64,000 bases of DNA from assembly GCF_001677475.2 (NCBI RefSeq), contig NZ_CP015229.1. One strand, written 5' to 3'. This document shows positions 44,825-44,900 of the stretch, piece by piece (position 1 is the first letter of the stretch; each line of letters opens with the position of its first letter). Source of the stretch: Escherichia coli (GTDB lineage: Bacteria; Pseudomonadota; Gammaproteobacteria; Enterobacterales; Enterobacteriaceae). The notes under the pieces were generated by a model, which ran no database searches, had not been told where the DNA came from, and saw only the letters and a list, made by a program, of their open reading frames with translations. The position numbers and the translations under genes are program-made.

Positions 44825-44900
44825 TGGTGGAGCTAAGCGGGATCGAACCGCTGACCTCTTGCATGCCATGCAAGCGCTCTCCCAGCTGAGCTATAGCCCC
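44825..44900 (-). tRNA. alaX: tRNA-Ala (anticodon GGC)
   Basis: Reverse complement gives GGGGCTATAGCTCAGCTGGGAGAGCGCTTGCATGGCATGCAAGAGGTCAGCGGTTCGATCCCGCTTAGCTCCACCA; single copy in this window; followed on minus strand by hairpin plus T-run. Confidence 0.9.

Follow-up and report, generated by a model that had tools for sequence, protein, structure and literature searches.

The analysed stretch of DNA, referred to here as the window, comprises 64,000 nucleotides of Escherichia coli. ARAGORN identified five tRNA genes in it, exactly one of which is a tRNA-Ala with the anticodon GGC, located at 44825-44900 on the minus strand with the anticodon ggc at position 34. The Rfam model RF00005 matches positions 44828-44900 with 63 bits, compared with a gathering score of 29. 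The gene is flanked by pdeA (yfeA; 42428-44617, minus strand) and yfeC (45120-45479, plus strand), and the gene order nupC-pdeA-tRNA-yfeC-yfeD-gltX-Val-Val-Lys-xapR agrees with the synteny of K-12. The sequence of the gene on the minus strand is GGGGCTATAGCTCAGCTGGGAGAGCGCTTGCATGGCATGCAAGAGGTCAGCGGTTCGATCCCGCTTAGCTCCACCA. The reverse complement of 44825-44900 begins with GGGGCTA and ends with TAGCTCCACCA, which places G3 opposite T70 and encodes the CCA end; both the G3:U70 wobble pair, an identity element for AlaRS, and the encoded 3' CCA are therefore present. The features of the locus and of the neighbouring tRNA array are as follows.

44784-44824, minus strand: alaX-type 3' trailer and predicted intrinsic terminator, stem-loop at 44817-44794 followed by a T-run (terminator scan)
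44820-44900, strand not applicable: counterpart of the K-12 81-nt perfect direct repeat (tRNA plus AAATT), the putative crossover interval
44825-44900, minus strand: tRNA-Ala(GGC), single gene, alaW/alaX fusion (ARAGORN; Rfam RF00005; alignment A1)
44901-44932, minus strand: region from the -10 hexamer to the mature 5' end, with discriminator, predicted start site and alaW-type leader (GTCACGTAAAG... on the plus strand; alignment A1)
44933-44961, minus strand: predicted alaW-type sigma-70 promoter, TTGACA, 17-nt spacer and TATGAT, followed by the GC-rich discriminator GCCGCCC (consensus scan)
47599-47874, plus strand: Val(UAC), 44 bp, Val(UAC), 4 bp, Lys(UUU) (ARAGORN)
Absent from the window: the K-12 alaX-alaW spacer, 39 bp, of which 34 nt are unique, ACGATGCGTTTACGTACCAAGTTTGCTGGGTGCA

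In K-12 MG1655, the pdeA/yfeC interval contains two genes, alaX (2518041-2518116) and alaW (2518156-2518231), arranged in tandem on the minus strand with a layout of 76+39+76 bp. The original prediction had placed both genes in tandem here, which the MG1655 coordinates bear out; a single K-12 copy at this site would have refuted it, and MG1655 has two. Alignment of K-12 with the window at this locus (alignment A1) reveals one gap of exactly one 115-bp unit, corresponding to the 76-bp tRNA and the 39-bp spacer. The flanks of the gap are collinear with K-12, and promoter, terminator and tRNA are otherwise unchanged; the tRNA sequence of the window is that of both K-12 copies, with every tRNA column invariant. 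A search of 44650-45150 for direct repeats or a second tRNA-Ala(GGC) gene found none, and the 34-nt unique part of the spacer had no match in the whole 64-kb window with 3 mismatches allowed. The prediction that only one tRNA-Ala(GGC) gene is present was thus confirmed by ARAGORN and by alignment A1, and its placement upstream of yfeC was also right, with the gene transcribed divergently from yfeC.

The sequences on either side of the tRNA indicate which parts of the K-12 pair are retained. Upstream, positions 44901-44932 match the sequence preceding alaW in K-12 and not the alaX-alaW spacer (alignment A1), and the start site of the gene probably lies within this segment. The promoter at 44933-44961 has 11/12 consensus matches and is the same in K-12 and in strain HNSQ2209 (alignment A1); 28 species representatives share its -35 and -10 elements and the discriminator ahead of tRNA-Ala(GGC). 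Downstream, positions 44784-44824 are the sequence that follows alaX in K-12 (alignment A1), with a terminator stem-loop of 10 pairs, 6 of them G-C (terminator scan). Judged by these matches, the gene in the window is a precise fusion of alaW and alaX, combining the predicted promoter and leader of the former with the predicted terminator of the latter.

The two K-12 genes belong to a repeat family of two 88-nt copies with a period of 115 that differ only in bases 5-7, leaving 81 nt as a perfect repeat. A crossover or slippage event anywhere in this 81-nt repeat would produce exactly the alaW/alaX fusion present in the window; the predicted deletion crossover is inside 44820-44900, and finer placing is impossible. 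No scar, foreign DNA, insertion sequence or integrase was found at the site of contraction when the window was compared with K-12. As far as the assembled sequence goes, the comparison demonstrates both the contraction and its precision. We propose that one 115-bp unit (one tRNA and the 39-bp spacer) may have been lost when the two perfect direct repeats of 81 nt recombined unequally by homology or when replication slipped between them, which would leave one predicted functional tRNA-Ala(GGC) gene with the alaW promoter and the alaX terminator. The same repeat could have misled an assembler: if two real copies were present, a short-read assembler might have traversed the 81-bp repeat a single time, leaving out the unique spacer of 34 bp. 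The repeat length speaks for such an error, as 81 nt is longer than the common de Bruijn k-mer sizes.

To estimate how frequent the one-copy arrangement is, we searched 5,426 complete RefSeq E. coli genomes. The 191-bp K-12 pair was rejected as a query, because overlapping pieces were joined and one-copy genomes still reached 83% coverage; in its place we used a spacer-only query and a 156-bp flank-tRNA-flank query, the latter with a limit of E <= 1e-65 that admits nothing but a contiguous one-copy arrangement. The K-12 spacer was found in 5,292/5,426 genomes, as many as four times in a single genome, and was missing from 134/5,426. The 156-bp query recovered the one-copy arrangement in 132 of the 5,426 genomes (2.4%) with 98-100% identity over the query, in agreement with the count of genomes without a spacer, and the tandem pair occurs in about 97% of the complete genomes. 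Extra spacer places number at most ~54, so that arrays of 3-5 copies occur in at most about 1% of genomes; JNEC-KY178 is an example of a three-copy array. The expectation that identical tandem copies are gained and lost by recombination fits these data, that is, the gap of one period of the 81-nt repeat, the recurrence in 132/5,426 genomes and the expansions to 3-5 copies.

The one-copy genomes are spread over unrelated backgrounds, including O157:H7, the K-12 derivative MC1061, KO11FL, clone D i14, ETEC and APEC. O157:H7 itself is mixed, with one copy in several strains and in a re-assembly of EDL933, and two copies in other O157:H7 genomes. The genomes of MC1061 (NZ_CP195014.1) and EDL933 (NZ_CP120944.1), both designated complete, have one tRNA-Ala(GGC) gene, whereas there are two in MG1655 and in other O157:H7 genomes; either laboratory stocks of these strains lost a copy very recently, or the finished genomes contain an assembly error. 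The 2.4% figure may be inflated by assembly errors, as some one-copy genomes are re-assemblies of strains expected to have two copies (EDL933, MC1061), and these cases also lend some weight to the idea that the window has lost a real copy during assembly. The copy change is thus recurrent in both directions, or it is recurrently mis-assembled.

The window has no close relative among the 5,426 complete genomes, the best matches reaching 97.7% identity over 33000-57000 and 98.5% over 1-24000. The possibility that it derives from another Escherichia species was rejected, since identity to mainstream E. coli is ~98.7% over 40000-50000; over the same 10-kb stretch it is only 90-96% to E. whittamii, E. 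albertii, Escherichia sp. MOD1-EC7003 and the SCPM-O-B-8794 representative. Within the window, the region from yfeO (37762-39018) to ypeC (39133-39459), examined over 38000-40000, is ~90-91% identical to strain JP538, one of the top-ranked matches to window 33000-57000, compared with 97-99% in the flanking kilobases, and looks like a divergent or recombinant allele. A look-up of the exact YfeO protein of the window gave 55 blocks of the public assembly collection. A tRNA-Arg(CCT) gene is situated at the beginning of the window, at 1454-1528 on the plus strand; other E. coli matches to window 1-24000 are annotated with cscA (sucrose hydrolase), dsdA, emrY, evgS and oxc, and in strain 4FM the stretch matching 1-24000 is interrupted by ~11 kb of extra DNA including a TOPRIM/DUF927 protein.

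Comparison within the lineage was based on two assemblies, GCA_033692955.1 and GCA_016118665.1, both draft. Window positions 27762-49018 (21,257 bp) are 100% identical to the draft contig ABOXQW010000001.1 of GCA_033692955.1, and a match to a draft counts in favour of a technical loss of the second copy. The independent sister assembly GCA_016118665.1 is 99.995% identical to the window over 20 kb, with a single mismatch in the 20,036 bp that precede a difference in the Val array. We looked for two Ala copies in this independent assembly of the same lineage and found one only. It has one tRNA-Ala(GGC) gene, yet three tandem identical tRNA-Val genes are resolved in it, a harder array for an assembler, which argues against a collapsed repeat and makes the short-read collapse mentioned in the original prediction less likely.

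The neighbouring valU-valX-valY-lysV array provides a further comparison, with evidence on both sides. The window lacks exactly one 122-bp unit of it, carrying the valX-valY spacer, and this unit is kept in K-12 and in GCA_016118665.1. As the Val array of the window is one unit shorter than that of its near-identical sister, a technical origin could be suspected from the occurrence of two contractions within 3 kb. Against this, two identical Val genes in tandem are preserved in the window at a distance of 2.7 kb from the tRNA-Ala(GGC) gene, implying that the assembler did not collapse such repeats as a rule. The valX-valY spacer is present in 5,182/5,426 complete E. coli genomes, so that the two-Val state accounts for at most 4.5%, and HNSQ2209 has one Val gene only. 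We sampled the Val arrays of six complete one-Ala genomes; in three of these, of O157 type, the array is outside the examined stretch, behind an IS200/IS605 insertion. Of the remaining three, two have three Val genes (KO11FL and MC1061) and one has two. A single Ala gene together with the full set of three Val genes in 2/3 genomes speaks against a general co-collapse of both arrays, and an obligatory shortening of the Val array in one-Ala genomes, as a general collapse artefact would entail, was rejected on the same count, in a sample too small for statistics. The IS200/IS605 element (a TnpB/InsQ gene and a partial tnpA) lies between yfeD and gltX in three O157:H7-type genomes, including NZ_CP120944.1; neither the window nor K-12 has it.

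Taken together, a single Ala gene in a sister assembly that resolves three Val genes, and the two Val genes kept in the window, favour one copy as the inherited state of this lineage. We therefore consider it likely that the ancestral alaW-alaX tandem has really contracted to one gene and that this state is inherited, and rather unlikely that the assembly conceals two real copies.

The direction of the change can be judged from related species. In a survey with a single genome for each species, we searched for the 5' half of tRNA-Ala(GGC) preceded by the conserved promoter elements and obtained 28 loci, distributed over Escherichia, Citrobacter, Salmonella, Cedecea, Buttiauxella and Dryocola; 27 of these were informative and 1 was cut before a second copy could be visible. 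Two tandem Ala(GGC) genes were found in 26 of the 27 informative species representatives, across these six enterobacterial genera. The tandem pair is therefore old and conserved across genera, and one copy is the derived state. The lone single-copy representative is E. whittamii Sa2BVA5 (NZ_JACSQI010000005.1, 11855-11930). It is a SPAdes assembly with ~8x coverage according to the contig name, so the single count may be unreliable, and it counts among the observations in keeping with a technical loss of copies. That one copy is instead ancestral in a divergent lineage, the K-12 pair being a later duplication, has in its favour the lack of a close complete E. coli relative of the window (best 97.7-98.5%) and the single gene of E. 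whittamii, but it is effectively refuted by the outgroup survey, with the pair in E. albertii, Escherichia sp. MOD1-EC7003, Salmonella, Citrobacter, Cedecea, Buttiauxella and Dryocola as well as in about 97% of E. coli and with one-copy genomes scattered in clones that have two-copy relatives, e.g. O157:H7, and we give it almost no credence.

If the contraction is real and inherited, its consequences can be considered in terms of gene dosage. The tRNA-Ala(GGC) reads GCC and GCU. The dosage of the alanine tRNA gene for these codons in the window would be perhaps halved, with little or no cost expected, and the remaining copy, which has the same strong promoter, should continue to provide tRNA-Ala(GGC). 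In K-12, deletion of the whole alaWX unit is viable, with impaired growth on minimal medium and 530 genes changed in expression (PMC11480407); without alaWX, the UGC isoacceptors must read all four alanine codons, which they do inefficiently (PMC11480407). Neither alaW nor alaX is mentioned in Raval et al. 2023 (PMC9981150). As the loss of both genes is viable but impairs growth in minimal medium (PMC11480407), the one-copy state is plausibly tolerated, with two copies as the norm. The rarity of 2.4%, together with the conservation of the pair across genera, suggests mild selection for two copies. A scenario in which one-copy alaWX and short valUXY are fixed and selectively favoured in this divergent Escherichia lineage, as an adaptive trimming of translational redundancy in a slow-growth or nutrient-poor niche and not through neutral drift or an artefact, appears very improbable. 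If the lineage truly has one copy, it provides a natural half-dosage allele that can be used to test dosage effects. For annotation and for models of tRNA adaptation and codon usage, it is relevant that the alaWX and valUXY-lysV counts obtained from draft assemblies vary.

Compared with the K-12 alaWX unit (alaW b2397, alaX b2396), the window has the same site, tRNA, promoter, leader and terminator, and one gene instead of two, with the 39-bp spacer and one 76-bp copy gone. The other one-copy alleles, e.g. those of JP538, HNSQ2209, KO11FL, MC1061, clone D i14 and several O157:H7 strains, share the flank-tRNA-flank arrangement of the window, and JP538 also has two Val genes and Lys, as in the window. 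The complete genomes with one copy come from unrelated backgrounds, and none is close to the window (best 97.7% over 24 kb). The Lovett laboratory has reportedly studied how short direct repeats in tandem give rise to deletions in E. coli; compared with that work, the mechanism proposed for the window is deduced from sequence. One-copy alaWX is an ordinary, already known and recurrent copy-number polymorphism, and the window offers a further case in which tandem identical tRNA genes of E. coli shift copy number by one unit, recurrently. Variation by plus or minus one copy has been described for many tRNA genes when E. coli strains are compared (McDonald et al. 2015, PMC4539685); the change in the window, which fits a deletion or duplication mediated by repeats, likewise amounts to one unit of an array in which identical tRNA genes stand in tandem.
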